This document shows positions 6,212 through 42,033 of a DNA stretch of 56,571 nucleotides, one piece after another. The stretch spans positions 1 to 56,571 of the IMG/VR virus record IMGVR_UViG_3300032214_000909. The stretch is one strand, 5' to 3'. Position 1 is the stretch's first letter, and each line of letters starts with the position of its first letter. The stretch comes from a virus (lineage: Duplodnaviria > Caudoviricetes). Position numbers and translations under genes: made by a program. Below the pieces are notes generated by a model. It did no database searches and had not been told where the DNA came from. It saw only the letters and a list, made by a program, of their open reading frames with translations.

Positions 6212-6630
6212 AACTTTTTTAATAGTTCACTTGACGAGTATATTTTCGGTAGATCAAGAATCGATTCTTCTATTCCAATTTCTTTACATACTTCCGATTC
6301 TGCAGTAACTAAATTTGAACCTTTTCTGTCGCCACTGTTAAAAAATATCAAGTGATCTTCTTTATATTTATTTTTTAAGTATCTAAGAGTCTGACATTGA
6401 GTTTTGTCTTTGTCAACAGAAATAAATACATCATCAACTGATTTCAAATTAAATATAATTTTAGATCTGTGATTTTCATCCATGAATTCTTTTGTTCCTT
6501 TTAATTCACGTTGGTAATCACTATTGATGACTGCAATTAATTTATCACATTTTTCTTTTGCAGAATTGATGTATTCGATATGTCCATAGTGGACGGGATT
6601 AAAATATCCAGATACTATTCCTATTTTCAT
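6208..6630 (-). CDS. cytidylyltransferase-family nucleotidyltransferase (TagD/RfaE-II-like)
   Basis: SGYFNPVHYGH (HxGH), VINSD, NSGDR, C-terminal SSS. Confidence 0.85.
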   Translation of the reverse strand: MKIGIVSGYFNPVHYGHIEYINSAKEKCDKLIAVINSDYQRELKGTKEFMDENHRSKIIFNLKSVDDVFISVDKDKTQCQTLRYLKNKYKEDHLIFFNSGDRKGSNLVTAESEVCKEIGIEESILDLPKIYSSSELLKKL

Positions 6631-8663: not shown

Positions 8664-9200
8664 TTATTTTTCTCCGTAATAATCGCCCCATTCAACTAAT
8701 ATAGTAGATCTATTATCAGTTCTTTCATAAGCATATTGGAATGATTCAAAAATTTGATGTGGTTCATCCAATCGAATGATATCAACTGTATCACACATTG
8801 CTTTAAATCCTCCTGTAAAATCACTAATATGTTGATGTTGTGGATGTAATGGGCGTTGAGAACCAATTGATGTTCTAATAATTACTTTTGGGTTATATCC
8901 ACCATCAGACATAATTTTCATTTTATCCAAATGATTTACTAATTGATTTGCGGCTAATAATAGAAAATTCCATCTGGGATATATAGAAATAGGAATTGTT
9001 CCGTTTAATGCCATTCCTATTGACACACCCATTTGCATATCTTCATTGACTGGCATTTCTAATAACTTAGATCTATCTACATCTTTTAATGTATTTGTCA
9101 TACCAGTACCAGCATATTCTACTGCCTGACCTAAAAACAAAGTGTTTTCTTTAGTTGCCAACCAATCCATTGATTTTTTAAGTTCATCGAAATATTTCAT
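8664..9200 (-). CDS. TPP-dependent E1 beta-like subunit (pyrimidine-binding domain only)
   Basis: LGQAV, LLEMPVNEDMQMG, NQLVNH, PQHQH; 178 aa from ATG 9200. Confidence 0.8.
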   Translation of the reverse strand: MKYFDELKKSMDWLATKENTLFLGQAVEYAGTGMTNTLKDVDRSKLLEMPVNEDMQMGVSIGMALNGTIPISIYPRWNFLLLAANQLVNHLDKMKIMSDGGYNPKVIIRTSIGSQRPLHPQHQHISDFTGGFKAMCDTVDIIRLDEPHQIFESFQYAYERTDNRSTILVEWGDYYGEK

Positions 9201-9204
9201 AATA

Positions 9205-9810
9205 TTAAAATTGAATTCTTTTGCCTGCGCCAGCGTGAGGATACTTTGTATCGTATTTGTAATATTTAATTTTGCGAGTTTCTTTTGCAAAGAATAATTC
9301 TTCACAGTTCCATACTTTTAATGTATCAGTACAAACTGATTTACCATTGTTTTCTATAATATAAGTAATAGGTAAATCATGATTCACCGAATATTTCCAG
9401 TTTTCAAAAAAGGTTCCTGTTTCAGATGTCATATCTCCAACGAAACACCAAACCTTTTCATTGGAACCTTTTCTTTTAATGTCCAATGCTACTCCGGTTG
9501 CAATAGGAATATTTCCGGTGACGATTGCTGATGAATATACTTTATATTCTGGATAACATAAAGTAATCGATTTACCTTTAAGAATGTCTGATTTAATAGT
9601 TTCTGGTGGTACTCCTTTTAATAAACATTGATAATGTGATCTCCATGTACAAAAAACCCAATCTTCATCTTTAATATCATTGAAAATATTAATCATTTGC
9701 GATTCGTTGCCGTTATACAAATGAATTGGTGCTTTAATTTTTGAACTATTAAATTGTTCGGCAATGTCTTCTTCAAATAATATTAACTCTGATGGTGTAT
9801 ACTTTTTCAT
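9205..9810 (-). CDS. TPP-dependent E1 alpha-like subunit (short)
   Basis: APIHLYNGNE, TWRSH, GD..SETG..FE..IENN TPP-binding motif. Confidence 0.85.
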   Translation of the reverse strand: MKKYTPSELILFEEDIAEQFNSSKIKAPIHLYNGNESQMINIFNDIKDEDWVFCTWRSHYQCLLKGVPPETIKSDILKGKSITLCYPEYKVYSSAIVTGNIPIATGVALDIKRKGSNEKVWCFVGDMTSETGTFFENWKYSVNHDLPITYIIENNGKSVCTDTLKVWNCEELFFAKETRKIKYYKYDTKYPHAGAGKRIQF

Positions 9811-28081: not shown

Positions 28082-29032
28082 ATGAGTTTTATTGCATTTG
28101 AAGAAGTTAAACAAACTGAAACGCAACATTATCTATGGGTTGAGAAATATCGTCCCAATACATTAGAAAATTATATTGGAAATCAACAATTAAAGGATAC
28201 TGTCAAAGGTTATATTGAGAAACATGACATTCCTCATTTGTTGTTTTATGGTACTGCTGGTACTGGTAAGACTACATTGGCTAAAGCAATCACAAAGAAT
28301 ATTGATTGTGATGTGATGTATATCAATGCATCCGATGAAAACAGTGTAGACAATGTACGAACCAAGATTAAGAGTTTTGCCAGTAGTGTTGGTTTTAGGA
28401 AGATTAAGGTTATTATCCTTGACGAATCTGATTTCTTGAGTCCAGAAGCTCAAGCAGCTCTTCGTAATATGATGGAAACTTATAGTTTGACTACACGGTT
28501 TATTTTGACTTGTAACTATGTAGAAAAGATTATCCCTCCTATAGTTTCTCGTTGTCAGACATATAAAATTGAACCGTTGAGCAAAAAAGAAGTGGCGGTA
28601 CATTTAAAGATGATTTTGGATAAGGAAAATGTACAATATACACCAGAAGATTTGGGTTATATTGTTAATACATATTATCCAGATATTCGTAAGGTTCTAA
28701 ACTACAGTCAACAAAGTGTTATAAATAATAAGATTAAGATCAGTGAATTGAATAGTACTAATGTTGATGTTAAGAACAAAATTGTAGAATTGTTAAAAGT
28801 TCGTGGTTCAACTGCTTTTAATGACATTAGACAGTTAATTGCGGATAGTGACATCAAACATTATGAGGAAATTTATGAAGTATTGTTTGATAAGGTGGAC
28901 GAATATTCAAATGGTAAACAGTCTCTTGTGATTTTAACTCTTGCGGAATATATATATCAAAGTGCCATGGTAGTTAATCGTGAGATTACTTTCATGGCTT
29001 GTATTGCCAAGTTACTTAAAGATTTAAAATAA
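28082..29032 (+). CDS. clamp loader AAA+ subunit (T4 gp44/RFC small-like)
   Basis: WVEKYRP, GTAGTGKTT, INASDE, LDESD, AQAALR, SRC. Confidence 0.95.
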   Translation: MSFIAFEEVKQTETQHYLWVEKYRPNTLENYIGNQQLKDTVKGYIEKHDIPHLLFYGTAGTGKTTLAKAITKNIDCDVMYINASDENSVDNVRTKIKSFASSVGFRKIKVIILDESDFLSPEAQAALRNMMETYSLTTRFILTCNYVEKIIPPIVSRCQTYKIEPLSKKEVAVHLKMILDKENVQYTPEDLGYIVNTYYPDIRKVLNYSQQSVINNKIKISELNSTNVDVKNKIVELLKVRGSTAFNDIRQLIADSDIKHYEEIYEVLFDKVDEYSNGKQSLVILTLAEYIYQSAMVVNREITFMACIAKLLKDLK

Positions 29033-31641
29033 TGGTTTCTACTGACAAATTTAATTTATTACATAGTTATATCTTTAGAAAGAAGAATGTTATAATGGAC
29101 AATACATTTTCATATAAAGATAAATCTATATTATATATTTGTCAAAATGGTACTAGTGGATATGCTAATGCAGCTAAAGGGTATATATATGACTATATTA
29201 ACAAAAAAATACCTGTAAAAGCACAGTATTTTAATTGTAATGATTTAGTCAATGAAAATGATAAATTTCATCAGTATTTGAATTGTAATACGAATAAAGA
29301 TATTGAGTATAATACAATAATTGTACATTCTACTCCTGACATTTGGGATGTTGTTATAAAAAATGCTCCTGATGTTAAATTAGAAAATAAATTAGTAATT
29401 GGTAGAACGGTGTGGGAGTTTGATAAATTATTACCTTCGTGGGTTGATATTATCAATGCCAGTGTAGTAGACATAGTTAGTGTTCCTACAAGATGGAACA
29501 GAGAGTGTTTTATTAATAGTGGCGTAATAAAACCTATTATAGTAGAACCTCATGTATACATTGATTATCCCTATAAAAAAACAGGATTAAAACATTTACT
29601 TTCTAAGAGTTTAATTATATGTAAAAACGAAAGTCATCTAAATATAGAAAAATTATATAAATTTTATTGTATTGGTCAGTTGATTGAACGAAAAGGTATA
29701 ATTGAAACTGTTGATGCATATTGTAACACATTTACATCTAATGATAAGGTTGTATTGTTTGTTAAAACATTTAAGTTTAATTATACAAAAGAAGAACAAC
29801 AAAAGTGTGTTGATGAAATAGTTAATATAACAAACAAATATAATCATGCTCCTATAATTTATATTAAAGATAATTTAAATTATGATGAAATTAGAACATT
29901 ACATGATATAGGTGATTGTTATGTTCAATTAACTAAGACTGAAGGGTTTGGATTAGGAATATTTGATGCATTTAATGTTGGAAAAAAAGTAATTGTTACT
30001 GGATATGGTGGTCAAATTGAATATTTGGGTAAAGATTATAATGGATTAGTGAATTATAATTTGAAATCCTTATCTAAAAATGACAGTGTATTTTTTCAAT
30101 TTAAATTGAACGAATCGTATTTATGGGCAGAGCCAAATAAAACGCATGCTAGTAAGTTATTACGATCTTCTTTGGATATTAAAAATGAATTAGAATTGAT
30201 AAATTTCGGTGAAGGATTTCATATTTTAGAAAATGACGGAGAACAATATAAATGGATGAGTGAACGCAATGAAATTTATATTAATGATTCAAATATTGAG
30301 AAAATTTCATTGGATTTATATAACGAAATACCATCCAATGTTTTTAATGTAATTAAAAATGATTTAACAAAGACACAATTGTCAATTCGCAACGGTAGAC
30401 AAAAAGTTGAAATTGACACTAAAAATGTAATAAAAATTGTAATTGAGTCCAATTATTTTATACCATCATTAAACAATTCAAATTCAAGTGATGATAGAAA
30501 GTTGTCGTGTAAACTTTATAATGTAATTGTAAATGATACAGTATTATCAATAGATAAAGTTGATTATATCAATGAAAGCATACGAAATATAAAGACTTCT
30601 GAAAATCATTTATTAGAATATGTAGGTGATTATGGTGAAATGAGCATTCGTATAAAAACAAATACTAATGTTGGTAAGATCAACTTAGGAGTTCAAACTT
30701 CCTTTTATTCGCATAGATCAGGATGGGACTATGTTATTAGAAATATGGGAGAATTTAACAATCCAAATGGTGTATTTTTCGATGGTTTCATAGAAAATGC
30801 ATTTAGTTGGAGAAAAAATCAGTACCTTGAAAAAAATATAATACCATATAAAGATCCTTGGATTGGATTTTTACATAATCCTCCTAATATGCCATTATGG
30901 TTTAGTGATAATAATTCATATCCTCAGACATTAATTCACGATGAACATTTTAGAGAAAGTCTGCGTAATTGCAAAGGACTATATGTTCTATCAGATTATT
31001 ATAAGAGATTTTTAAAACATTACATACCAAGTATACCAGTAAATGTACTATATCATCCAACGGAAATACCTGATGTAAAGTTCAATTTTGATAAATTTTA
31101 TAAAAACCAAAATAAAAGTATAGTTAATATTGGTTGGTGGTTAAGAAGATTAAATTCAATATTTTTATTGAACGGCGGAAATTATCAAAAAATTAGATTG
31201 ATGCCTAATAATAAGTGTAAAGACACCATATTAAGATTGACTAATATAGAAAGAGATTTATTTGGAATTCGATTAACTCAAGATCAAATAAATTCTGTAA
31301 AAATAATAGATCATTTGGAAAACAAAGAGTACGACAAACTTTTGACAGAAAACATTGTATTTTTAGATTTGTATGATACAAGTGCCAATAATGCTGTAAT
31401 TGAATGTATTGCGAGAGGTACACCATTATTAATTAATAAACACCCAGCTACAATTGAATATTTGGGAGAAGAGTATCCATTTTATTTTGATTCTTTAAAA
31501 CAAGCATCAGACAAATTAAATGATATTGATTTAATCAAATATACTCATGAATATTTAATGTCATTTGATAAACGAAAACAAATAACAATTGAATATTTCA
31601 AACAACAATTCAATGAATCGGAAATATATAAATCACTATGA
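29032..31641 (+). CDS. multidomain glycosyltransferase (GT4 + beta domain + second GT-B-like domain)
   Basis: SGYA, TVWE, RKG, TEGFGL in the N-half; SANNAVIECIARGTP in the C-terminal domain. Confidence 0.75.
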   Translation: MVSTDKFNLLHSYIFRKKNVIMDNTFSYKDKSILYICQNGTSGYANAAKGYIYDYINKKIPVKAQYFNCNDLVNENDKFHQYLNCNTNKDIEYNTIIVHSTPDIWDVVIKNAPDVKLENKLVIGRTVWEFDKLLPSWVDIINASVVDIVSVPTRWNRECFINSGVIKPIIVEPHVYIDYPYKKTGLKHLLSKSLIICKNESHLNIEKLYKFYCIGQLIERKGIIETVDAYCNTFTSNDKVVLFVKTFKFNYTKEEQQKCVDEIVNITNKYNHAPIIYIKDNLNYDEIRTLHDIGDCYVQLTKTEGFGLGIFDAFNVGKKVIVTGYGGQIEYLGKDYNGLVNYNLKSLSKNDSVFFQFKLNESYLWAEPNKTHASKLLRSSLDIKNELELINFGEGFHILENDGEQYKWMSERNEIYINDSNIEKISLDLYNEIPSNVFNVIKNDLTKTQLSIRNGRQKVEIDTKNVIKIVIESNYFIPSLNNSNSSDDRKLSCKLYNVIVNDTVLSIDKVDYINESIRNIKTSENHLLEYVGDYGEMSIRIKTNTNVGKINLGVQTSFYSHRSGWDYVIRNMGEFNNPNGVFFDGFIENAFSWRKNQYLEKNIIPYKDPWIGFLHNPPNMPLWFSDNNSYPQTLIHDEHFRESLRNCKGLYVLSDYYKRFLKHYIPSIPVNVLYHPTEIPDVKFNFDKFYKNQNKSIVNIGWWLRRLNSIFLLNGGNYQKIRLMPNNKCKDTILRLTNIERDLFGIRLTQDQINSVKIIDHLENKEYDKLLTENIVFLDLYDTSANNAVIECIARGTPLLINKHPATIEYLGEEYPFYFDSLKQASDKLNDIDLIKYTHEYLMSFDKRKQITIEYFKQQFNESEIYKSL

Positions 31642-32624
31642 GTTTAAAAAAACAAAAATATATGAATAAATATATTATTACAGAAAGACGGGGGGGATTA
31701 GGAGATATTTTTGCTACATTTATAGGAACATGGATATTAGCTAAATATAGTAACAGAGAAGTAATAATAGATTGGAGACGAAATCCTTATAATTGGTATT
31801 GTGGGAATAACATAAAACAAAAACTTTCTGGTGCATATGTTCCTATCAATTCTTTTTTGACAATATTTGATGTTCCTACAACTTTGTGTGGAGTAAATTT
31901 TTATTTGCCTGAACATATATCTGAATATGGAGTAAGAAATAACGAAAATAATTTTTGGGAATATAATGATTTACAACTTTTATCTCAAAATAGTTCTAAC
32001 ATAGAAGAATCAAATTCTATTTTATTTTCTGATGACATTTTTATTAGAAACGAAATACGATTTGGTACATTATGCACCGGCAGTCCAATTAATATGAATT
32101 TAGAATCGTATTTTGATGAAAAAATAAAGATTAACGACTTTTTTGAGCACATTAAAATAAATCAATTTATTTCGTCTAAAATAAAATTTTATGAAAATTT
32201 ATTTCTCAATAAGAAAGTTTGTGGAATTCACATAAGACATGGCAATAATACAGAAGTAACAAATCCTTTGAGGTATCCAAATTGGATTAGTGATGATGAT
32301 TTAATTAAAAATATAAAAAGAGAAATTAAGCAGTTTTGCGAAGATGAATATTATTTTTTCATTTGTACTGATACAGAGAAAATAAATAATTTGATATTAA
32401 AGGAAATTCCTAATTCTTTTAGTTTAAGTAAAGAGTATTCTTATGAAAAAGAAAATTGTTTATTGTTAAATGATAGAATAAATCCGATATCTTCATTTCA
32501 ACAAGCATTTTTAGATATGTATTTTCTCACTAAATGTTCTAAATTGTTATATACAAGAGAAAGTGTATTTACATTAATTCCTCAATATTATTATAACATT
32601 AAAGATAAAAAATCTATTTTTTAA
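31638..32624 (+). CDS. NodZ/GT23-like fucosyltransferase
   Basis: GGLGD, IIDWR, GIHIRHGN, FICTD, AFLDMYFLTKC, SVF. Confidence 0.75.
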   Translation: MSLKKQKYMNKYIITERRGGLGDIFATFIGTWILAKYSNREVIIDWRRNPYNWYCGNNIKQKLSGAYVPINSFLTIFDVPTTLCGVNFYLPEHISEYGVRNNENNFWEYNDLQLLSQNSSNIEESNSILFSDDIFIRNEIRFGTLCTGSPINMNLESYFDEKIKINDFFEHIKINQFISSKIKFYENLFLNKKVCGIHIRHGNNTEVTNPLRYPNWISDDDLIKNIKREIKQFCEDEYYFFICTDTEKINNLILKEIPNSFSLSKEYSYEKENCLLLNDRINPISSFQQAFLDMYFLTKCSKLLYTRESVFTLIPQYYYNIKDKKSIF

Positions 32625-32625
32625 T

Positions 32626-33636
32626 ATGTTTGAGATAAAATATAAAATTGAAAGTGATATAACACTTCATTCGTTTGAATTAAAAAATATACATCTTTTT
32701 TTTCATAATCATCCTGCGTTTATAGAAATATTAAAAGAAAATACAGATTTAACTTATTTGTTAAGAAGACAGTATTGGATAGATAATAAAAAACCAAATT
32801 ATAAAGATAGTAATATCAAATATGATAGAGAAACAATTAGAATAGAACATCCTTCTTTTTTTCTATTTGATGATTATTATGGAAATTATTTACATTATTT
32901 TGTAGAAACATTTCCAAAGATAAATTATTTTCTACAAATAAAAGAAAAAATACCAAATATAAAATTAACAATTCCTAATTTTATATGGGATATGTGTTTT
33001 ATAAAAGAATCGATTTTGATGTATCTTGATAATGATATCAGTGATGTCGTTGTATTAGATAATAATAAAAATTATATTTTTGACATATTACTTATACCAA
33101 ATAATATATACTTATGGCCTGATAAGTTTACTTTTTCAAATATCATATTCGATAGTTTTAAAAAATTAAGTGATAAAGTCTCGGTTGATGAGGAAAAAAC
33201 AGGTGTTTATATATCAAGACAAGACACAATTAAGGCTGGTTGGTGGCATAAAAGACATTTAGTAAATGAATTAGAATTAATTGAAAATGTTAAAAATAAT
33301 TTAAATTATGATATTGTTGAACTTTATTATTTGAATTTACATGATAAAATTAAAATTTTCAAAACATATAAAAATATACTGCAGATTAGTGGCGCTGGAA
33401 TGATTAATTTATTGGCTTGTAAACCATTAACAAATTTTCATATTATTTCTCATCCGTTATATAAATGGTCGGATATTATCTTAAAAATAACGGCGGAAAA
33501 ATTAAATATAAATTTTTATGAATATGATTCTGCGAAAGTTATTTATGAAACTGACGAAATTTTAGGGGATCAGAGTAATCGTCCGTGGAAATTAGAAAAC
33601 ATGGAAAAAATAATATCAAAAATAAAAACTATATGA
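32626..33636 (+). CDS. glycosyltransferase family 61-like (DUF563)
   Basis: NYLHYFVETFP, YISR, RHLVNE, GAGMIN. Confidence 0.75.
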   Translation: MFEIKYKIESDITLHSFELKNIHLFFHNHPAFIEILKENTDLTYLLRRQYWIDNKKPNYKDSNIKYDRETIRIEHPSFFLFDDYYGNYLHYFVETFPKINYFLQIKEKIPNIKLTIPNFIWDMCFIKESILMYLDNDISDVVVLDNNKNYIFDILLIPNNIYLWPDKFTFSNIIFDSFKKLSDKVSVDEEKTGVYISRQDTIKAGWWHKRHLVNELELIENVKNNLNYDIVELYYLNLHDKIKIFKTYKNILQISGAGMINLLACKPLTNFHIISHPLYKWSDIILKITAEKLNINFYEYDSAKVIYETDEILGDQSNRPWKLENMEKIISKIKTI

Positions 33637-34619
33637 ATGATTTAAATGACAGAATAAAACTTAAAGGAGGTTCTTTAAGCGGTGTTTATCTTGTAAATGC
33701 CGACGGATTTAGATTTGTAAGAAAAGAAGTTTCATTGATTGAAAATAGAGAATATGGATTTCAAAGATGGTATTCACAATTAAAAAAAATTCAACGATTT
33801 AATAATTTATTTCCTGACTTTTTTCCTGAATTGTTATCATACGGAATTGAAGGTGATATTGCGTATTTTGATATGCAATATTTAGATAATGCAATTTCAG
33901 CGCATAAATTTATTTGTAATACAACTGATGTAAGAAAAATTGAAATATTTTTTGAAAAATTAATATCTTCAATGAATCAAATCCATTCTTTGAAATTTAA
34001 ATCAAATGCAAGTTCTTTGAATTTATATATTAGAGAAGAAGTTACGCAAAAATTAAATGATGTATATAATGATTACATTTTTTCTAATTTTTTAAAATAT
34101 AATTATTTAATAGTAAATGACATTGAAATTAAACCATTTTGTTATGATATAGAACGATATAAAGATTTGTTTAATAAAGTTTATAAAAATCCATTTGAAT
34201 GTTTTACCCACGGAAACATTACTTTAGAGAATTTATTATATGACGAATTTGAAAATAAATTGTATTTTATAGATCCATATGAAGAAAATATTATAGATTC
34301 ACCATTAACAGAATATTCACAAATTTTTCAATCTTCAAATTCTAAGTATGAAATTTATAATGAATTAGATATTAAAATTGAGAATAACATTCTAAATATA
34401 GACAATCAATTCAATTTTGGATTGGATTATTTTAATAATTTATTTAAAAAACATTTAGTTGATGAATTAACAAGCGATCAATATATTAGTGTAAATTTAT
34501 TTGAAATCTCTCAATTTATTAGAATGTTGCCTTTTAAGAAAGAAATTGATAAGAATAAAATGTTGTTCTTCTATGTATTAGCATCGAAATTATTTAATGA
34601 TATTAAAATTTCTATATGA
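33633..34619 (+). CDS. APH/choline-kinase-fold phosphotransferase
   Basis: GGS loop, VRK, HGNITLEN (HGDxxxxN-like), FIDP; start moved to ATG 33633. Confidence 0.65.
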   Translation: MNDLNDRIKLKGGSLSGVYLVNADGFRFVRKEVSLIENREYGFQRWYSQLKKIQRFNNLFPDFFPELLSYGIEGDIAYFDMQYLDNAISAHKFICNTTDVRKIEIFFEKLISSMNQIHSLKFKSNASSLNLYIREEVTQKLNDVYNDYIFSNFLKYNYLIVNDIEIKPFCYDIERYKDLFNKVYKNPFECFTHGNITLENLLYDEFENKLYFIDPYEENIIDSPLTEYSQIFQSSNSKYEIYNELDIKIENNILNIDNQFNFGLDYFNNLFKKHLVDELTSDQYISVNLFEISQFIRMLPFKKEIDKNKMLFFYVLASKLFNDIKISI

Positions 34620-35734
34620 CAGAATATACAATTAATACATCGATTCCAATAAATTATAAAATCAAAAATTGTAAAAATATTTTTGATGTTAATAATTCGG
34701 ATTTACTTTATTCAAATTCAGATGTCTATTCAAATAAAAGATTAATTATAGTAGACGAAAAAATATATAAATTATACGGCAATCAAATAAAAAAATATTT
34801 TGATGTTAAAAATATTTATCATAAAATAATAGTAATAGAATCGGAAGAAATTTATAAAACAGATGATAAACTAATATGGTTATTAGAAGAGATTGAAAAT
34901 TTTAATTTAAATAGAAGAAATGAACCAATAATATGCATTGGTGGAGGCGTAACATTAGATATAGTTGGTCTCGCATCATCAATGTATCGTCGTGGCGTTC
35001 CTTACATAAGAGTCCCTACTACTTTATTAGGAATTGTAGATGTATCCGTTGCTGCTAAAACCGCAGTCAATTTTAAAAATAGAAGAAATAGATTGGGTTC
35101 ATATTATCCTCCGATTTTAAGTTTGATAGATAAATCTTTTATATATACTCAAAACTTAACCGATATTAGTTCAGGTATGGGAGAAATCTTAAAAATGGCA
35201 GTTATAAAAAATTATGATTTGTTTGAAATATTGGAAAAATATGGTAATGATTTATTGTTGAATAAATTTCATCATGAATTTGCAGATCAAACAATTGATT
35301 TATCAATAAAAGGAATGATAGAAGAACTTGAAAACAATTTATGGGAAAAAGATTTAAAGAGATTGGTTGATTTTGGACATACATTTAGTCCTATAATTGA
35401 AATGAGATCGTTAGGAACAGATTGTGAATTAAAACATGGACAAGCAGTTACGTTGGATGTAATATTTTCTTCTATAATTTCTTATAAAAGAAACTATCTT
35501 TCTTATGAAAGTTTAATTAGAATAATCAATACCGCAAAAAATATTGGATTGCCTACAAAACATGATTATTTTTTCAATTTTTCGTTTTTAATCGAATCAT
35601 TAAACGATGCTATAAAACACAGAAATGGCAGTCAAAATATTCCAATTCCATTGAAAATCGGCGAAGGAGATTTTTTAAATGATTTAACAGAATCAGAAAT
35701 AAATGATGCAATTAAATTTTATAAAACATTATGA
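34616..35734 (+). CDS. sedoheptulose 7-phosphate cyclase (2-epi-5-epi-valiolone synthase-like; DHQS superfamily)
   Basis: GGGVTLD, YRRGVPYIRVPTTL, NRLGSY, GEILKMA, MIEELENNLWE, LVDFGHTFSP, HGQAV. Confidence 0.85.
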   Translation: MTEYTINTSIPINYKIKNCKNIFDVNNSDLLYSNSDVYSNKRLIIVDEKIYKLYGNQIKKYFDVKNIYHKIIVIESEEIYKTDDKLIWLLEEIENFNLNRRNEPIICIGGGVTLDIVGLASSMYRRGVPYIRVPTTLLGIVDVSVAAKTAVNFKNRRNRLGSYYPPILSLIDKSFIYTQNLTDISSGMGEILKMAVIKNYDLFEILEKYGNDLLLNKFHHEFADQTIDLSIKGMIEELENNLWEKDLKRLVDFGHTFSPIIEMRSLGTDCELKHGQAVTLDVIFSSIISYKRNYLSYESLIRIINTAKNIGLPTKHDYFFNFSFLIESLNDAIKHRNGSQNIPIPLKIGEGDFLNDLTESEINDAIKFYKTL

Positions 35735-36408
35735 AAAAAACAGTTATTATTACAGGTACAAGTAGTGGTGTCGGAAAACAATGTGTTGAAAAGTTTTTAA
35801 ATAAAAATTGGAACGTTATTGGATTATCAAGAACAAATGTAGATTTTTATAATAAAAATTATTTTCATGTTCAAACTGATATAAAAGATCCACGATCAAT
35901 TAAAAATTCATTTGATGTTATTTCAGAAAAATATAAATCAATTGATTTATTGATTAATAATGCTGCAATTTTTAAAATGAAACCATTGATTGAATTCAAC
36001 GAAGATGAAATTAATGATATCATTGATACTAATCTTAAAGGAACAATATTTTGTACATTAAATACTCTTAAAATTATGAATAGGGGTAGAATTATTAATA
36101 TAAGTTCGGTATCAGGAACACATGGTATAGAAAATCAATCGGTTTATAGTTCAACAAAATATGCATTAAATGGATTTGCAGAATCTTTAAATCAAGAATT
36201 AATTAAAAAGAATATATTGATAAGCACAATATGCCCTGGGGGGATTAATACTCCTTTATGGAATGATAAAAATCAATATCCAGGTAGTGACACAAATAAA
36301 ATATTAAATCCTGATGATATAGTAAATATGATTGAATATATTGTTGATTTACCCGAAAATGTTGTTTTAAAGAATGTAATTTTGTTTCCAACTTGTGAAT
36401 GGCATTAA
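35731..36408 (+). CDS. classical SDR oxidoreductase
   Basis: TGTSSGVG, LINNAA, NISS, YSSTK, PGGINT. Confidence 0.9.
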   Translation: MKKTVIITGTSSGVGKQCVEKFLNKNWNVIGLSRTNVDFYNKNYFHVQTDIKDPRSIKNSFDVISEKYKSIDLLINNAAIFKMKPLIEFNEDEINDIIDTNLKGTIFCTLNTLKIMNRGRIINISSVSGTHGIENQSVYSSTKYALNGFAESLNQELIKKNILISTICPGGINTPLWNDKNQYPGSDTNKILNPDDIVNMIEYIVDLPENVVLKNVILFPTCEWH

Positions 36409-36412
36409 AAAT

Positions 36413-37120
36413 ATGAATCTAATACTAACAATGGCAGGTAAATACTCTAGGTTTGTAAATGAAGGATATAAAATTCCTAAATATTTATTGCCTTGGTCAA
36501 ATCATACAATATTATCTGAAATATTATTTAACATTACAAAAGATAATATATTTAAAAATATTTTTCTTGTTGCAAATAAAAATGACAAGAATTTTATACA
36601 TCAAATTTTACATACCATGAAATATTATAATATTCAAAGTGAAAATTTGATTTATATAAATGATACTAAAAGTCAATGTGAAACTGCTTTAATTTCAATA
36701 AATGAATTTAGTGATAAAATATCAAATAAAGAACCAATATGTTTTCATAATATTGACACAATATTGTATAAAAGAAATTTTGAACATGTATATGAGTGTT
36801 TAATTAAGTACGATGGTTACATTGACATATTTACATCAAACAATCACGAATATAGTTATGTATTAAAAGACCAAATGTTTGTTAGAGATATACAAGAAAA
36901 AATATTGATTTCATCAACTGCTAGTTCAGGATTTTATGGATTTGCAAATGTTGATGTATTTATTGAGAATTATGAAGACGATTACTTTAGTAAAACATAT
37001 AGAAAAATGATATCAAATAATAAAAAAGTAATCTGTGGAAATTTACATGATGAAAACGATACTTTAGTATTAGGAACACCAAAAGAGTATTTTTATTTAT
37101 CTACTAAAAATGTTTTTTAA
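36413..37120 (+). CDS. sugar-phosphate nucleotidyltransferase (NTP_transferase family)
   Basis: MAGKYSRF...GY..PK.LL, NID, EK...S..ASSG.YGF, LGTP; start moved to ATG 36413. Confidence 0.75.
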   Translation: MNLILTMAGKYSRFVNEGYKIPKYLLPWSNHTILSEILFNITKDNIFKNIFLVANKNDKNFIHQILHTMKYYNIQSENLIYINDTKSQCETALISINEFSDKISNKEPICFHNIDTILYKRNFEHVYECLIKYDGYIDIFTSNNHEYSYVLKDQMFVRDIQEKILISSTASSGFYGFANVDVFIENYEDDYFSKTYRKMISNNKKVICGNLHDENDTLVLGTPKEYFYLSTKNVF

Positions 37121-37137
37121 TATAAAAAATTTGTAAT

Positions 37138-38028
37138 ATGTATGGATCAATGAAAGTCAATCTATATTATTGGAACAATGGTGTTGGTGTAGTTAATCAT
37201 AGTAGATTGATAAAATCATTATTTTGTGAACATGATGTTATTTCATATGATATATCATCAAAAAATGAATATAGAAAGTCAGATCTTGGTATTTTTATAC
37301 AAAATATATTACCCGATGAATTATCAAATAATAAAAAAAATATATACATTGTATGTGAAGAATGGTTGACAGATTTTGAGATGTCTCATATTGATTGGTT
37401 TGATTATATATTTGTTCATTCTAATCATGCAAAAAACTTATTAAGTTTATATCATAAAAATGTAATTAACACTGGTTTTTTCAGTTTGGATAGATATTTT
37501 TTTCCAACTAATACCAAGGAATTACTACATTTAAAAGGTAAATCTATACAAAAAAATACTGAATTGGTTTGGAATTATAAAAAAGACATAAATATATTAG
37601 ATTCAAGTCATAGGTATCTATCAGAGAATGAGTTGATTCATGAATTAAACAACCATGATATTCACATATGTTGCAGTTTATATGAATCGTGGGGACATTA
37701 TTTATGGGAAGCAATGAGTTGTGGTAAATTAGTAATTTGTAGCGAAATACCTGTATTTAAAGAATATTTAAATCCCGAATTGGTTAAATTTGTACCAATT
37801 AAAAATATATATGATTTTGTTATAAATTACGAATTTTTAAATACAAAAAACTATAAATTTAGAAAAGGTTACTTTGTTGACAATTTCAAATTTAATGAGT
37901 TGTTAAACAATAAAGAAGACTTATTTGAATTTCAAAAAAGAAATAGTGACAATATTAGACAACATTTTTTAGACATAAATAAAACAAATAAACAAAAGTT
38001 TTTAGAAACGATTAAATTTATATTATGA
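37138..38028 (+). CDS. glycosyltransferase family 4-like
   Basis: NGVG, GKS.QKNT, ESWGHYLWEAMSCG. Confidence 0.75.
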   Translation: MYGSMKVNLYYWNNGVGVVNHSRLIKSLFCEHDVISYDISSKNEYRKSDLGIFIQNILPDELSNNKKNIYIVCEEWLTDFEMSHIDWFDYIFVHSNHAKNLLSLYHKNVINTGFFSLDRYFFPTNTKELLHLKGKSIQKNTELVWNYKKDINILDSSHRYLSENELIHELNNHDIHICCSLYESWGHYLWEAMSCGKLVICSEIPVFKEYLNPELVKFVPIKNIYDFVINYEFLNTKNYKFRKGYFVDNFKFNELLNNKEDLFEFQKRNSDNIRQHFLDINKTNKQKFLETIKFIL

Positions 38029-38888
38029 AAAAAAATGTCATATGTTATTTATCTAAATCGGATGATAAAACTATTAATAATTTAAAGACATCGTTGAAAA
38101 AACTTTATAGTAATTATAAATGTATATATAATAGTGACGTAATAGTTTTTATCGAAAATGATTTTTCATATGATATTATAAACGAATTAGAAAAATTATA
38201 TAACAATTTAAAATTTAAACATATTGAATTAAACTCATCTAAAAATTTTAATATTGATAATATAGAATTTGAAGACGGTAGATTAGAATTTAAAATAGGT
38301 TATAGACATATGTGTCAATTGTTTTTCAGTGAAATATATTCATATATACAAGATTATGAATGGTATATGAGACTTGATACAGACTCTTTTATTGAAAGTC
38401 CTATTGAATACGATTTATTTGATTATTTGGATAAAAACAACAAAATATATGGATATACCGCTGAATTGGCAGAATGGCCACCAGTTGTAATTGGAATGGG
38501 TGAATTTTTTATCAATTTGGTTAGAAAACATAATCTTAAATTGACTTTTTTTAATAAGTTAATAGAAAATGATCGTTATAATCTTAGACAAATTTATAAT
38601 AATTTTGAAATAATTAAAGTTTCTTATTTTGAAAATGAATTGGTACAATTGTTAGTAAATGAAATAAATAAAAGTGGAAATATATATAAAAAAAGATGGG
38701 GTGATTCCCCGTTGAGAACTTTTGTGTTATCATTGACAGTTGATAGTTCTGAAATACATAAATTTAATGATTTTGATTATATGCATAGTGCTTATAATAG
38801 AATAAACGGTATAGAACTTTGCAGTTATAGTGGTTATCAACAAGATTTATTTCAACAATGGAAAAAAGAAGGATGGTTAAATAAATGA
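38025..38888 (+). CDS. glycosyltransferase family 15-like (Kre2/Mnt1 mannosyltransferase)
   Basis: GYRHMC, YEWYMRLD, YNNFEI, RWGDSP match GT15 hallmarks. Confidence 0.8.
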   Translation: MKKNVICYLSKSDDKTINNLKTSLKKLYSNYKCIYNSDVIVFIENDFSYDIINELEKLYNNLKFKHIELNSSKNFNIDNIEFEDGRLEFKIGYRHMCQLFFSEIYSYIQDYEWYMRLDTDSFIESPIEYDLFDYLDKNNKIYGYTAELAEWPPVVIGMGEFFINLVRKHNLKLTFFNKLIENDRYNLRQIYNNFEIIKVSYFENELVQLLVNEINKSGNIYKKRWGDSPLRTFVLSLTVDSSEIHKFNDFDYMHSAYNRINGIELCSYSGYQQDLFQQWKKEGWLNK

Positions 38889-39946
38889 AAAATATACTTT
38901 ATGTAGCAGTTTATGGAACATGTGGTTATGCAATATCTGCAAAATACTTCATGTTTAATTATTTAATGAATGGTTATAATGTTACATTCATGCCTCAATA
39001 TGTAGACAATACAAAAATAGAAAATCCTGATTTAATTGAGAAGGCAGTAGAAGAATGTAAAGAGAAAATGTATGATTACTATGATTTATGTGTAGTAAAC
39101 TTTTTACCCGATCAAGTGGATAATATAATCATGGGATACAAGAAACATTTTAACAATCCAAATATTAAAATAGTATTGCAAACTACATGGGAGACAACAA
39201 CTTTACCACCAGAATGGATGCCTTTCCTTAACAGTCCTAATATACATGAAGTATGGACATCATCCGAATTTACTAAAAAAGTATTTGAAGACAACGGAGT
39301 CACTACTCCTATTAGAGTCAATAAATATTTGAGTTATAATTTCTTTAATAAACGACCAAAAAACGAATTAGATATTCCAGAATATGTTCAATATGGTAAT
39401 AAAGATATTCGTCGTACATATAACTTTTATAACATTGCTACTTGGAATGATAGAAAAAACAATGTAGGTACGGTCAAAACATATTGTAATACTTTTACAT
39501 CTGATGATACTGTAACATTAATAATGAAAACCAATTATTATTATTATACAGATGAAAGTATAAATATTATTAAGAAACAAATTGAAGATATAAGATCTCA
39601 ATATCCAAATCCACCAGATATAATCTTATTTTTTGGTAATTATTCAACTAAACAAATAAACGAAATACATAACTTAGGTGATTGTTATTATTTATTGCAT
39701 AGAGGTGAAGGACTTGGATATGCTGCATATGAAGCTTATTTGAATCATAAACCAGTCATAGTTACAAAATATGGTGGTCATATAGATTACTTCACAGAAA
39801 ACTATCCGTATTTAGTTGATTATACAATGTGTGATGTATTTGGTATGGAATTTGCACTATTTTATCAACATAAACATCAATGGGCGGAACCAAATTATGA
39901 ACATGCAAAACAATTATTACTAAACATATATAATAAATACAAATGA
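38885..39946 (+). CDS. glycosyltransferase family 4
   Basis: GTCGYA, TTWET, RKN, GDCY...GEGLG, WAEPN; paralog of the N-half of 29032..31641. Confidence 0.8.
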   Translation: MKNILYVAVYGTCGYAISAKYFMFNYLMNGYNVTFMPQYVDNTKIENPDLIEKAVEECKEKMYDYYDLCVVNFLPDQVDNIIMGYKKHFNNPNIKIVLQTTWETTTLPPEWMPFLNSPNIHEVWTSSEFTKKVFEDNGVTTPIRVNKYLSYNFFNKRPKNELDIPEYVQYGNKDIRRTYNFYNIATWNDRKNNVGTVKTYCNTFTSDDTVTLIMKTNYYYYTDESINIIKKQIEDIRSQYPNPPDIILFFGNYSTKQINEIHNLGDCYYLLHRGEGLGYAAYEAYLNHKPVIVTKYGGHIDYFTENYPYLVDYTMCDVFGMEFALFYQHKHQWAEPNYEHAKQLLLNIYNKYK

Positions 39947-40701
39947 TATATTATAGCACAATATTAAATGATGAAATTGATTTTTTAAAGTTACAATTAG
40001 AATTGAATTATCCATATGTTGATAAGTTTGTAATTACAGAATCATCGTTTACATTTTCAAATAGACCAAAACCACTTTATTATTTTGATAATAAACATTT
40101 ATTTGAAAAATACCAAGATAAAATAATTCATTTTATTGTAGATTTTGATGAATTGGATACATGGATAACATATCCATCAACGGTATTTAATGCTGATGAC
40201 TGGCGACGAGAAAGAAAACAAAGAAATTATATACTTGAAAACATTGTATTTACGAATGATGATATATTAATATGTGTAGATATTGATGAAATAGTATTTT
40301 TAGAACAATGTATTAATGAAATAGATAAAAATGATGTTAATTATTTAGAACTTGACATGCGCAAATATTATATGAATTTACAATGTACTATCAATAATCC
40401 ATGGATAAGAGCATTGTCATTCAATCCAAATTTATATAAACAGGAGATACATGACTTGTGGCATTTAAGATTTTTAAGAAATAAATATAGTTCATATAAA
40501 TTGATTAAAAATGCAGGTTATCATTTTTCGTGGTGTTATAATGTTGAAAATAAATTGTTATCATTTGCACATCAAGAGGACAATACCATTGAAAGATACA
40601 ATATGGTCAGAGATAGAATAAAAAGATTGGAAGATACAAGAATAATGAATAATTTGCCAGAATTTTTATATTCGGATTATTCAAAGTACATTTACAAATA
40701 A
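39943..40701 (+). CDS. glycosyltransferase family 17-like (MGAT3-type GlcNAc transferase)
   Basis: VDKFVITES..TFS..PK, E..QRN, DIDEI, GYHFSW, K..SFAHQE. Confidence 0.8.
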   Translation: MIYYSTILNDEIDFLKLQLELNYPYVDKFVITESSFTFSNRPKPLYYFDNKHLFEKYQDKIIHFIVDFDELDTWITYPSTVFNADDWRRERKQRNYILENIVFTNDDILICVDIDEIVFLEQCINEIDKNDVNYLELDMRKYYMNLQCTINNPWIRALSFNPNLYKQEIHDLWHLRFLRNKYSSYKLIKNAGYHFSWCYNVENKLLSFAHQEDNTIERYNMVRDRIKRLEDTRIMNNLPEFLYSDYSKYIYK

Positions 40702-40719
40702 ACAAAACTATATATTAAT

Positions 40720-41307
40720 ATGGTATACTATTCTGGAAATTCTCAAGACGAATTTGTACTAAATATTCTTAATCATATTAATAATGGATATTTTATTGAC
40801 ATTGGTTGTTTTGGACCAAAACAATATATTAATTCGTATACAATGGAATCGATTGGATGGAATGGTTTAGCATTCGATTTGATTGAATATGAACAATTTT
40901 CATCTGAAAGGAAGTGTAAATTTATAATAGGAGATGCCACTTTACATGATTACGAAAAAATTTTTATCGATGAAAAAGTTCCATTTGTTATTGATTATTT
41001 GTCTATAGATATAGACCGTGGAAGCTTAGATGTTTTAAAAAAAATACCTTTTAAAAATTTTAAATACAAAACAATTACAATTGAACATGATTATTATAGA
41101 TTTGGAGATGAACTTAGAAAAGAACAACGGGAGATATTAAATAATAATGGTTATTTCATGTTATTTTCTGATGTTGATGCGTTTTGTAATACGAATACAT
41201 TTTTTGAAGATTGGTGGGTTCATCCAAGTTATGTGGATGTAAATAAATATAAACATTTAAATAGAGATAAAAGATGTAATAAAGATATAATAAAAGATTT
41301 GTTCTAA
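40720..41307 (+). CDS. FkbM-like methyltransferase
   Basis: SQD.FV, GYFIDIG, GWNG, IDYLSIDID, ITIEHD, EDWWV. Confidence 0.7.
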   Translation: MVYYSGNSQDEFVLNILNHINNGYFIDIGCFGPKQYINSYTMESIGWNGLAFDLIEYEQFSSERKCKFIIGDATLHDYEKIFIDEKVPFVIDYLSIDIDRGSLDVLKKIPFKNFKYKTITIEHDYYRFGDELRKEQREILNNNGYFMLFSDVDAFCNTNTFFEDWWVHPSYVDVNKYKHLNRDKRCNKDIIKDLF

Positions 41308-41337
41308 TTTTTTATTATATGATTGTTCAAACTATAC

Positions 41338-42033
41338 ATGAAAAATAAATTGATTATTTTCAGTCATCATTATGTCGATGATATTGTAATTGAAAGGTTT
41401 AATAATTTAAAGAATTTAAATCCTACATGGGATATTGTTTCGATAGGATTTGATGGATATAATTTGATTCCAAATTCATTGGTAATAAATAAAGAAAAAT
41501 ATCCGACAAATAAAGCAATTAATTATTATGTTCTGAACAAATCAATTGATTGGTTTGACTGTGATTTGTTTGCATATGATGCTTATTTACAAATGCCAAC
41601 TTATGATGAATATTTTCTTTATGAATATGATACGATCTGTAATGTTCCAATCGAATCGTTTTTTAATACAAATGTAGATTTTTTTGGAAATCGTATATGT
41701 GATCCATCGTCAGAGGATTGGGAGTGGATAAAATTATATAGAAAACATAATTCGCATCACATTAAGTTTTCTGCTTTATATGCATATGGACAATCAACCT
41801 GTGTATATTTTAAAAATTATATATTGGGTAAATGTGTGAATGAAGTTTTAACCAACAAACATTTATATGACAATATGTTTTGTGAAGTAAGAGGCGGTAC
41901 ATTAGTTAGTAAATTTACAACACTAAAAAAAGGAAGAGAAGATATTCAGAAATATATTAGTTGGACTTCCGATGATATTGCAATCGATTTAAATCAAAAT
42001 TACTTTTATCATCCTATCAAAACTATAGTCTAA
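41338..42033 (+). CDS. hypothetical protein, possible glycosyltransferase
   Basis: EYD, WEW, FCEVR, YHPIK motifs; last gene of the glycan island. Confidence 0.45.
   Translation: MKNKLIIFSHHYVDDIVIERFNNLKNLNPTWDIVSIGFDGYNLIPNSLVINKEKYPTNKAINYYVLNKSIDWFDCDLFAYDAYLQMPTYDEYFLYEYDTICNVPIESFFNTNVDFFGNRICDPSSEDWEWIKLYRKHNSHHIKFSALYAYGQSTCVYFKNYILGKCVNEVLTNKHLYDNMFCEVRGGTLVSKFTTLKKGREDIQKYISWTSDDIAIDLNQNYFYHPIKTIV

Follow-up and report, generated by a model that had tools for sequence, protein, structure and literature searches.

Can a phage carry its own route to an activated carbon-ring analogue of a sugar? The question is raised by a stretch of viral DNA of 56,571 nucleotides (IMG/VR record IMGVR_UViG_3300032214_000909; Duplodnaviria, Caudoviricetes), hereafter called the window, in which four co-directional genes on the + strand (33633-37120) encode a kinase-like protein, a sugar-phosphate cyclase of the EEVS type (EEVS for synthase of 2-epi-5-epi-valiolone), a classical short-chain dehydrogenase/reductase (SDR) and a small nucleotidyltransferase. 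C7 cyclitols are familiar as the warheads of acarbose and validamycin and as precursors of sunscreens, made by specialised gene clusters in a few lineages. An earlier, sequence-only reading of this DNA proposed a phage-borne cassette for cyclitol activation built around an EEVS-type cyclase, and that core proposal holds on three observed grounds: gene identities at the level of fold or family, co-conservation and phylogeny. The cassette most likely converts a sugar phosphate of the host into a carbon-ring mimic of a sugar, activated by a nucleotide, for use in glycans. It is read here as a self-contained precursor-supply module that would make a nucleotide-activated C7 cyclitol (carbasugar) from sedoheptulose 7-phosphate (S7P), a reading to which a probability of roughly 0.6 is given. 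The genes are as follows.

33633..34619, + strand: kinase-like protein, 328 aa, with the aminoglycoside phosphotransferase (APH) / choline-kinase / fructosamine-kinase fold and the catalytic-loop motif HGNITLEN
34616..35734, + strand: EEVS-type sugar-phosphate cyclase, 372 aa, with Pfam domains DHQ_synthase and DHQS_C
35731..36408, + strand: classical SDR, 225 aa (Pfam adh_short, 4e-46)
36413..37120, + strand: small single-domain nucleotidyltransferase, 235 aa, with an in-frame GTG at 36395

As read from the sequence, the kinase/cyclase and cyclase/SDR junctions are ATGA stop/start overlaps, and a 4-nt spacer (AAAT) separates the SDR stop from the nucleotidyltransferase ATG. That four coupled genes lie in a glycosyltransferase island, as first claimed, is borne out by the open reading frames (ORFs), by these junctions and by the Pfam families on the flanks.

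Type and phylogeny of the cyclase

The cyclase matches DHQ_synthase (1e-27) and DHQS_C (6.8e-23), the Pfam domains of 3-dehydroquinate synthase (DHQS), and scores 193.7 bits on the NCBIfam aroB model, under the cut-off of 305. Among PDB sequences it ranks ValA first (4p53; 268 bits, 8.8e-79), followed by 5tpr (204 bits) and the best AroB (113 bits), with 2-deoxy-scyllo-inosose synthase at 88 bits. The PDB title of 5tpr is 3-dehydroquinate synthase; we take it to be demethyl-4-deoxygadusol synthase (DDGS). Alignment to ValA is near full length, with almost identical blocks flanking the two peptides that the sequence-only reading had quoted, which are present from residue 234 (window position 35315) and residue 250 (window position 35363) onwards. 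The aligned motifs are MLEELQPNLWE...LVDFGH in ValA and MLELEVPNLHE...VIAYGH in 5tpr. A signature NLWE/VD[FY]GH/[ST]FSP/xHR is common to actinomycete EEVS-like proteins and the window cyclase (NLWE/VDFGH/TFSP/KHR), whereas DDGS-like proteins carry NLHE/IAYGH/TWSP/xTR and AroB-like proteins LN[YFL]GH; the contrast between the three types that had been asserted beforehand is visible in the alignments of 4p53, 5tpr and the AroB-like outgroups. In place of the D of VDFGH and the H of KHR in the window protein, A and T stand in 5tpr and in 13 cyanobacterial DDGS-like proteins; the D and H presumably correspond to ValA Asp281 and His360, the positions that separate EEVS from DDGS. Residues E190, H255 and H274, invariant in 22/22 cyclase homologues, are presumably the metal ligands by analogy with DHQS. 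Identity of the window cyclase is 25-27% to the true AroB of five genomes and 38-59% to EEVS-like proteins. Structure 4P53 is that of ValA, and a fingerprint of active-site residues distinguishes S7P cyclases (PMC4426668, partial text).

Trees rooted on AroB were computed with FastTree (180 rows) and with IQ-TREE in quick mode (61 rows). For outgroups, five of the same genomes supplied AroB and other DHQS-like genes; the DDGS-like genes come from 61 genomes of a single cyanobacterial order, that of genome G001, and no authenticated 2-epi-valiolone synthase was included. The topologies are to be read with compositional heterogeneity (the window protein included), long outgroup branches and supports of the Shimodaira-Hasegawa (SH) type only in mind. 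All S7P-cyclase-like proteins split from AroB (SH-aLRT 99 in IQ-TREE, with FastTree in agreement), and the window cyclase falls within the EEVS-like group (support 85-99; IQ-TREE SH-aLRT 85); it does not group with AroB, the outcome on which the first reading had staked its assignment. Cyclases of the cassette form one clade, with 80/80 rows and support 99 in FastTree and 30/30 rows and support 98 in IQ-TREE. In both trees EEVS-like proteins from actinomycetes and a single cyanobacterium surround this clade, the actinomycete proteins, including that of an Actinoplanes utahensis locus, falling outside it, and in both the DDGS-like clade and a second cyanobacterial clade (HAYGH signature) are sister to the EEVS-like group. 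The window cyclase pairs with that of viral locus L002 (support 100), and both belong to a 13-row subclade (support 99; 9 cellular and 3 viral rows) that stands apart from the main viral clade.

On sequence grounds the cyclase is of the EEVS type and not AroB or DDGS, as had been proposed; the PDB ranking, the aroB score, the signature and the trees all bear this out. Its predicted reaction converts S7P into 2-epi-5-epi-valiolone or the C5 epimer of this compound.

That the gene is an ordinary shikimate AroB carried as an auxiliary metabolic gene, or that the stretch is bacterial and not phage, is so improbable as to be nearly negligible. Some databases do label homologues '3-dehydroquinate synthase', and the Pfam matches are to DHQS domains; against this stand the score under the aroB equivalog cut-off, the low identity to true AroB and the agreement of the trees, together with T4-type replication genes that flank the island on both sides and a closest relative contig (L002) that shares the polymerase (~68% identical to that of the window). 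As a candidate, the shikimate enzyme was rejected on the aroB cut-off, the PDB scores, the identities and the trees. A DDGS of a sunscreen pathway was rejected on the signature and the tree; no methyltransferase-oxidoreductase or ATP-grasp partner is conserved in the 90 cassette loci described below.

Two side observations concern the same trees. The second cyanobacterial clade of S7P-cyclase-like proteins (L192-L206, 15 rows), sister to the DDGS-like clade, has its own signature (NMFE or NLYE / HAYGH / TWSP / xKR). In addition, two contigs of metagenome-assembled genomes (MAGs), L096 (Gammaproteobacteria) and L099 (Caenarcanales), have cyclases inside the main viral clade on branches of 0.019 and 0.052; nested there on such short branches, they may represent phage DNA that was binned with the MAGs, or prophages.

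Co-conservation of the four genes

Relatives of the cyclase were sought with a 22-sequence alignment in IMG/VR, where the best 80 of 116 were kept (81 viral rows, one contig being counted twice), and in GTDB genomes, where the best 80 of at least 495 were kept. Cassette genes were scored by comparing the window proteins, with BLASTP, to every frame of the resulting 161 locus records. Co-conservation of the four genes, which the first reading took as decisive for its case, is present in 63/81 viral rows and 11/80 genome loci. The remaining viral rows have kinase, cyclase and SDR (13), kinase, cyclase and nucleotidyltransferase (2) or a cyclase at the contig end (3). The kinase gene lies directly upstream of the cyclase in 78/81 viral rows, and in the other 3 the cyclase is within 124 nt of a contig end.

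Among the genome loci, three have kinase, cyclase and nucleotidyltransferase, one has kinase and cyclase, and 65 are without kinase and nucleotidyltransferase; the kinase is directly upstream of the cyclase in 15/80. The 65 kinase-less loci, mostly of actinomycetes with one cyanobacterium and one Saccharibacteria MAG, are cellular EEVS-like loci in which no BLASTP match (E<1e-5) to the cassette kinase or nucleotidyltransferase was found within ~6 kb. Cellular carriers are a Polynucleobacter isolate and MAGs assigned to Woesearchaeota, an unclassified archaeon, Desulfobulbaceae, Myxococcota, Balneolaceae, Fibrobacteria, Saccharibacteria, Magnetovibrionaceae, Holophagaceae, Gammaproteobacteria and Caenarcanales. 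The cassette kinase occurs in 1/81 sampled Polynucleobacter genomes, a sporadic presence that fits a variable surface-glycan locus.

When the 1672 ORFs of 90 cassette loci were clustered all against all by single linkage, the same four families emerged: kinase in 90/90, cyclase in 90/90, nucleotidyltransferase-like protein in 86/90 and SDR in 84/90, with the next family in 59/90. Two gene orders occur, kinase-cyclase-SDR-nucleotidyltransferase and nucleotidyltransferase-kinase-cyclase-SDR, and the SDR gene comes after the cyclase in 84/90 loci. Because the four genes are co-conserved in other genomes, their linkage is far beyond chance.

The viral nature of several records can be followed beyond the cassette. 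Neighbours in L006 and L031 fall into PHROG families (phrog_455, 371 bits; phrog_727, 387 bits), and the 146-kb record of L031 codes for a major capsid protein of the T4 type (470 bits) and for a polymerase sharing 33% identity with that of the window. Three other large viral records were searched and have neither such a capsid protein nor such a polymerase, two of them being fragments by CheckV. Other viral loci are counted as viral by their IMG/VR label.

Kinase-like protein, reductase and nucleotidyltransferase

The window kinase-like protein has no Pfam, NCBIfam or PDB sequence match, a single-sequence PDB search giving nothing meaningful. Family matches appear among 32 members of its family, with 11 to Fructosamin_kin, 8 to APH and 7 to Choline_kinase. 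An AlphaFold2 model with a predicted local distance difference test (pLDDT) score of 93.7 has as its top Foldseek matches APH(2'')-Ia, APH(3'), APH(4), fructosamine-3-kinase, methylthioribose kinase, NahK and maltokinase, all at probability 1.0; template-modelling (TM) scores of 0.5-0.63 to APH(2''), APH(3'), APH(4), fructosamine-3-kinase, methylthioribose kinase and NahK place it in the bilobal protein-kinase-like fold. Lys31 for ATP binding, Asn200 and the metal-binding Asp214 are all retained. In one representative protein (P0152) kinase and cyclase are fused, which is supporting evidence only since it may be an artefact of gene calling or of a frameshift. An Atlas search with the kinase returned 'hypothetical protein' clusters and partial APH labels, a lead and not a separate line of evidence. 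As side observations, distant paralogues with HGD in the loop carry fused LPG_synthase_TM, HAD phosphatase or radical-SAM/SPASM domains, and one family representative is fused to a GIY-YIG/NUMOD3 homing endonuclease.

The SDR has the motifs TGxxxGxG and NNAG and the triad Ser126-Tyr139-Lys143 of a classical SDR. Residues G9, G13, G15, S126, Y139 and K143 are kept in 31/31 rows, T8 and N76 in 30 and N77 in 28, and a family-specific C-terminal E-W-H is kept in 29 to 31 of the 31 rows. An Arg after strand 2 is typical of SDRs that use NADP(H); by this rule Arg34, found at that position in 30/31 rows, points to NADP(H) and hence to reduction. The protein is predicted to be an NADPH-dependent ketoreductase acting on the cyclitol ketone.

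The nucleotidyltransferase has no Pfam match. It hits PDB 4evw ('nucleoside-diphosphate-sugar pyrophosphorylase') at 5e-9 as a single sequence and at 2.1e-33 with a 28-sequence profile. The next profile matches lie between ~5e-6 and 1e-3 and include ribitol-5-phosphate and methylerythritol-phosphate-type cytidylyltransferases (TarI/IspD-like, ~5e-6) and RmlA-type enzymes (~1e-4); a chain of the ADP-glucose-pyrophosphorylase family reaches only 2.4e-4, versus 2e-33 for 4evw. Its N-terminus reads MAGxxxRF...PKYLLP, with Gly9, Arg13, Pro22 and Lys23 invariant in 28/28 rows, and G-x-G-x-R ... P-K is the N-terminal signature of sugar- and alditol-phosphate nucleotidyltransferases. The predicted reaction is cyclitol phosphate plus nucleoside triphosphate to nucleoside-diphosphate (NDP)-cyclitol.

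Neighbouring genes and glycan context

The genes next to the cassette, and the island that holds it, are the following.

29032..42033, + strand: glycosyltransferase island holding the cassette, downstream of a clamp-loader gene
32626..33636, + strand: GT61-like glycosyltransferase (Pfam Glyco_transf_61, 2.7e-13)
37138..38028, + strand: GT4-type glycosyltransferase, 296 aa (Pfam Glycos_transf_1, 6.7e-10, residues 160-214)

By Pfam, the island contains Glycos_transf_1 (in an 869-aa protein), NodZ, GT61, GT4, GT15, GT4 and GT17, with two ORFs having no family. The GT61-like gene is coupled to the kinase start by an ATGA overlap (33633-33636), a 17-nt gap (again read from the sequence) separates the nucleotidyltransferase from the GT4 gene, and the latter overlaps the next glycosyltransferase gene by ATGA (38025-38028). 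Families that are mostly of eukaryotic type (NodZ/fucosyltransferase-like, GT61, GT15 of the alpha-1,2-mannosyltransferase-like kind and GT17; 31638-33636 and 38025-40701) are an unusual side feature of this phage.

The GT4 gene had been counted as part of the unit, a claim that failed: BLASTP finds no match to the window GT4 in any of the 161 records, and even L002, the closest relative, is without it at that place. As a dedicated, conserved partner it was rejected, and it stands as a candidate user of the cassette product in this phage only. Nor do the GT15, GT17 and NodZ-like genes of the window have homologues in any of the 161 records. The GT61-like gene is 55% identical to the gene at the same position in L002 and was seen in that contig only.

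A universal fifth gene was not found among the 90 cassette loci, where the commonest further families, c4, c5 and c6, reach 59, 45 and 44 loci, almost only viral; by hmmsearch, all three are absent from the window. The commonest, c4 (L006:3581-4285, phrog_13607; 58 of its 59 loci viral), has a weak DUF7796 match, and its model (pLDDT 85) is that of a GT-A glycosyltransferase like the GT6 ABO transferases (Foldseek probability 1.0, TM ~0.5-0.57). Being the commonest viral neighbour, c4 argues for use of the product by a glycosyltransferase-like enzyme in those phages. Two further neighbours deserve mention in their own right. In L022 (3772-5031) and 15 further viral loci, a protein resembling the RuBisCO large subunit (c15; PF00016, 1.1e-43) is encoded directly upstream of the kinase, and in these c15 loci the nucleotidyltransferase match is weak or missing. 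In the window, 6627-7703 (- strand) encodes a 358-aa protein with no Pfam family that is 51% identical to the product of the gene directly 3' of the cassette nucleotidyltransferase in L004, a family also present in L092; it is possibly tied to the cassette in function although it lies 27 kb away.

Cellular neighbourhoods were scanned in three loci. In Polynucleobacter (L085) the cassette lies between ManC/GT2/Wzz-like genes and a GT9 gene, in Woesearchaeota (L082) a Wzx-type flippase is directly upstream, and in L083 a B12-radical-SAM enzyme follows the cassette. In the part of the window ORFs that was scanned, Pfam revealed no phosphotransferase of the LicD/TagF type, and no epimerase or dehydratase is conserved among the four shared families or the most frequent neighbour families scanned.

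Phage setting of the window

The source of the window is a T4-like freshwater phage. Its DNA polymerase is of the T4-type family B (phrog_262, 594 bits), with 2671 phage records matching and the closest at 45% identity, and it is accompanied by a gp44-like clamp loader (phrog_168, 264 bits), a small clamp-loader subunit, a deoxynucleoside-monophosphate kinase, HNH endonucleases, a helicase and a PD-(D/E)XK nuclease. The guanine-plus-cytosine content is 23-34%, and no tRNA genes were found in the window. The replication module is interrupted by two sugar islands, one on the - strand (~1797-22057) and the + strand glycosyltransferase island. A blastn comparison of 33000-38500 with 50,697 phage records gave no match; near-identical cassette DNA is found in 20 sequencing runs from 13 studies (one of them possibly the source of the window), most with a freshwater, lake, river or aquatic label, and the phage lineage is accordingly widespread.

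Two side observations concern this setting. The genes for the small (356-883, phrog_225) and large (28082-29032, phrog_168) clamp-loader subunits are ~27 kb apart, with the polymerase and a sugar island between them, unlike in T4, where the clamp-loader genes 44 and 62 are adjacent. The - strand island (1797-22057) is a second large sugar-tailoring region of nucleotide-sugar tailoring enzymes and glycosyltransferases, comprising two FAD oxidoreductases, an RmlC-like epimerase, a DegT aminotransferase, a cytidylyltransferase-like protein, a GHMP kinase, a split thiamine-pyrophosphate enzyme (8664-9810), a B12-radical-SAM enzyme, a methyltransferase, a 4,6-dehydratase-like SDR, PNP_UDP_1, GFO/IDH/MocA and dUTPase-like proteins, a GT2 and GT4s; this content suggests a pathway for a branched or methylated amino sugar.

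Proposed pathway and competing explanations

Substrate, product, order of steps, nucleotide and acceptor are what we infer from these identities. The EEVS-type cyclase would close the carbocycle on S7P with loss of phosphate, giving 2-epi-5-epi-valiolone or its C5 epimer. The NADPH-type SDR would reduce the ring ketone to a saturated heptol of the valiolol type, and the APH-fold kinase-like enzyme would put a phosphate back on the cyclitol, reduction coming either before or after phosphorylation. The small nucleotidyltransferase would then join the cyclitol phosphate to a nucleoside monophosphate, yielding an NDP-cyclitol, with cytidine diphosphate (CDP) as a plausible carrier. Such a module would be portable, like rml- or heptose-type cassettes, and plugged into unrelated glycan loci of phages, bacteria and archaea, where the unit would be put in place by transferases particular to each locus; in this phage the neighbouring GT61-like and GT4 enzymes are the candidates. 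Virion, DNA and host-surface glycans, the targets put forward by the sequence-only reading, are possible acceptors. Attachment could be through an ether link, as a pseudo-sugar, or through a phosphodiester, as a cyclitol phosphate, the latter being chemically easier for a saturated cyclitol. Phosphodiester transfer, known for CDP-ribitol, CDP-glycerol and CDP-choline, is at least as plausible as ether-forming pseudo-glycosyl transfer.

The EEVS reaction liberates phosphate (PMC9200736, partial text), which is why a kinase is needed ahead of nucleotidylation. The GDP-valienol route of acarbose and validamycin takes about eight enzymes, including an epimerase, a dehydration, AcbL/AcbN, a second kinase and a 7-phosphatase, to reach an unsaturated donor, and the known pseudo-glycosyltransferases take this allylic donor, GDP-valienol (PMC9200736, partial text). 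Since only reductase, kinase and nucleotidyltransferase are conserved with the cyclase here, with no epimerase or dehydratase, the product is probably a saturated cyclitol and not valienol; and because none of the extra enzymes of the GDP-valienol route is conserved, a generic role in donor supply is favoured. A copy of the acarbose/validamycin scheme, in which an unsaturated NDP-valienol-like carbasugar would be transferred by an adjacent GT-B pseudo-glycosyltransferase, shares the cyclase type and the kinase-plus-nucleotidyltransferase logic (PMC9200736, partial text), and a GT-B-type GT4 does come after the cassette. It is nevertheless highly unlikely: kinase and nucleotidyltransferase belong to other families and are without homologues in the 65 kinase-less loci, AcbR/ValB are ADP-glucose-pyrophosphorylase-like (PMC9200736, partial text), the conserved set holds no epimerase or dehydratase, and the GT4, an ordinary Glycos_transf_1 protein by Pfam, is not co-conserved.

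Several points weigh against the precursor-supply module. One concerns the kinase-like protein, in which HGNxTLEN places Asn at the catalytic Asp of APH enzymes, choline kinases and protein kinases in 32/32 aligned members. In a library of 1.84 billion proteins, HGN is found in 83 of the best 100 kinase representatives, the other 17, mostly fragments, being without the motif, and HGD in 35 of the next 50, more distant ones. With a profile, the only PDB match is the catalytic-loop region of the JAK2 pseudokinase domain (JH2), which has the same HGN (E ~4e-3). The protein may be a poor or unconventional phosphotransferase. The earlier label 'kinase' stands as far as the APH-type fold and the co-conservation go and gives way at the catalytic Asp; the substitution lowers confidence in a conventional kinase and leaves the genetic linkage unaffected. 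Weighing in the same direction, the cassette cyclases are 37-45% identical to actinomycete EEVS-like proteins, the C5 configuration of the product is left either way (2-epi-5-epi-valiolone or 2-epi-valiolone), no transferase is co-conserved across all cassette loci, the window is without the GT-A partner family (c4) common in other phages, and we know of no glycan containing such a C7 cyclitol, nor did one turn up in the literature searched.

The substrate and product of all members of the cassette clade, predicted from sequence, could also differ, because the clade is separate from characterised EEVSs and because relatives of the EboD kind use a different sugar phosphate, EboD acting on mannose 6-phosphate (PMC12904256, partial text). 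A cyclase that takes a hexose phosphate or another heptulose phosphate, so that the module would activate a C6 inositol-like or other cyclitol (compare CDP-inositol), would fit a clade distinct from every characterised enzyme and the precedent of DHQS-like enzymes that, annotated by similarity, proved to act on other substrates, EboD among them (PMC12904256, partial text). This substrate shift is rather improbable, given a near full-length alignment to ValA with almost identical motif blocks, a match to the EEVS type at every discriminating signature position and EEVS-like proteins as the nearest outgroups of the clade.

The fate of the product admits a further explanation, namely that the product is a soluble small molecule and not a glycan building block. 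This C7 cyclitol, whether free, phosphorylated or nucleotidylated, could act as an inhibitor of glycosidase or trehalase type, a signal, an osmolyte or an agent of host take-over or anti-defence. The characterised EEVS pathways all give secondary metabolites or sunscreens and not glycoconjugates, as far as the partial texts of PMC12904256 and PMC9200736 go, and both the lack of a universally co-conserved transferase and the atypical catalytic loop would suit such a role. We consider it unlikely, since the nucleotidyltransferase is kept in 86/90 loci, a nucleotide-activated alcohol being normally a donor and not an end product, and since the cassette sits within glycosyltransferase or polysaccharide-assembly loci (the window, L085 and L082) with a GT-A-fold neighbour in 59/90 loci. 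The precursor-supply module remains preferred, and it allows a more tentative extension, held at somewhat less than even odds: the nucleotide-activated, valiolol-type C7 carbasugar would be an unrecognised building block of microbial and viral glycoconjugates, supplied by a portable set of four genes that has its own cyclase clade, its Asn-type kinase of APH fold and its dedicated nucleotidyltransferase, and with this unit freshwater phages of several lineages would decorate their virions or remodel host surfaces in a way resistant to glycosidases and depolymerases.

Novelty and significance

Literature searches in open full text, with subscription papers outside their scope, found neither a description of the cassette nor any viral EEVS, S7P-cyclase or C7-cyclitol pathway, in agreement with the statement of the sequence-only reading that no characterised viral pathway of this kind was known. 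A search for 3-dehydroquinate synthase as an auxiliary metabolic gene likewise gave only unrelated papers. In the available text of a 2026 cyclitol review, the words 'phage', 'virus' and 'polysaccharide' do not occur (PMC12904256). A comparable route has so far been described only in antibiotic-producing bacteria, with different enzymes; here the same ring-forming chemistry is joined to a different, minimal activation set, which is conserved in at least 75 IMG/VR contigs (T4-like phages included) and in polysaccharide loci of at least 10 bacterial and archaeal phyla. Should glycosyltransferases use the NDP-carbasugar, glycobiology would gain a new class of monomer, a natural and compact enzymatic route to activated carbasugars would become available for glycosidase-resistant glycans and inhibitors, phages would offer a new case of rerouting the host pentose-phosphate pathway, and the Asn-for-Asp kinase family would be a test case for kinase-fold enzymes without the canonical base. 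If the building-block reading is true, primary glycan assembly would have its first carbocyclic sugar mimic, and viruses their first S7P cyclase pathway.

Comparison with known systems

DDGS of the mycosporine and gadusol sunscreens and 2-epi-valiolone synthase belong to the same superfamily as the cassette cyclase and presumably use the same substrate; DDGS differs in its NLHE/IAYGH/TWSP/xTR signature and forms a separate clade.

The acarbose and validamycin pathways are the closest in logic, starting from S7P with an EEVS-type cyclase (AcbC or ValA, ValA being the best solved relative of the window protein) and then phosphorylating (AcbM, AcbU, ValC) and nucleotidylating (AcbR, ValB) the cyclitol (PMC9200736, partial text). 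They differ from the cassette in that the latter has four conserved genes only, without epimerase or dehydratase, uses an APH-fold kinase and a 235-aa nucleotidyltransferase nearest to 4evw and the TarI/IspD type, and is found in phage and polysaccharide loci and not in secondary-metabolite clusters. The antibiotic cyclitol kinases ValC and AcbM are glucokinase-like, and among the transferases VldE is GT20-like and AcbS GT5-like. The parallel drawn by the sequence-only reading is therefore sound for the succession of EEVS, kinase and nucleotidyltransferase; it breaks down at the kinase and nucleotidyltransferase families, the missing epimerase and dehydratase and the absence of a co-inherited pseudo-glycosyltransferase.

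Two alcohol-activating systems resemble the second half of the cassette. LicA/LicC, a choline kinase with a CTP:phosphocholine cytidylyltransferase, likewise pairs a kinase of the choline-kinase/APH fold with a small GT-A-fold nucleotidyltransferase that activates an alcohol. In TarJ/TarI, which synthesise CDP-ribitol, a reductase makes the polyol before cytidylylation, and ribitol-5-phosphate cytidylyltransferases are among the nearest solved relatives of the cassette nucleotidyltransferase. Unlike in both, the cassette alcohol would be made de novo by a carbocycle-forming cyclase, and the kinase has HGN, not HxD.

The NDP-heptose cassettes consist of GmhA, the HddA/HldE kinase, GmhB and the HddC/HldE nucleotidyltransferase. 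They begin with an isomerase that makes a pyranose, whereas the phage cassette begins with a cyclase that makes a carbocycle, and the kinase and reductase families differ. Both would divert S7P into a nucleotide-activated C7 unit, and both are compact, portable gene sets of variable surface-glycan loci.

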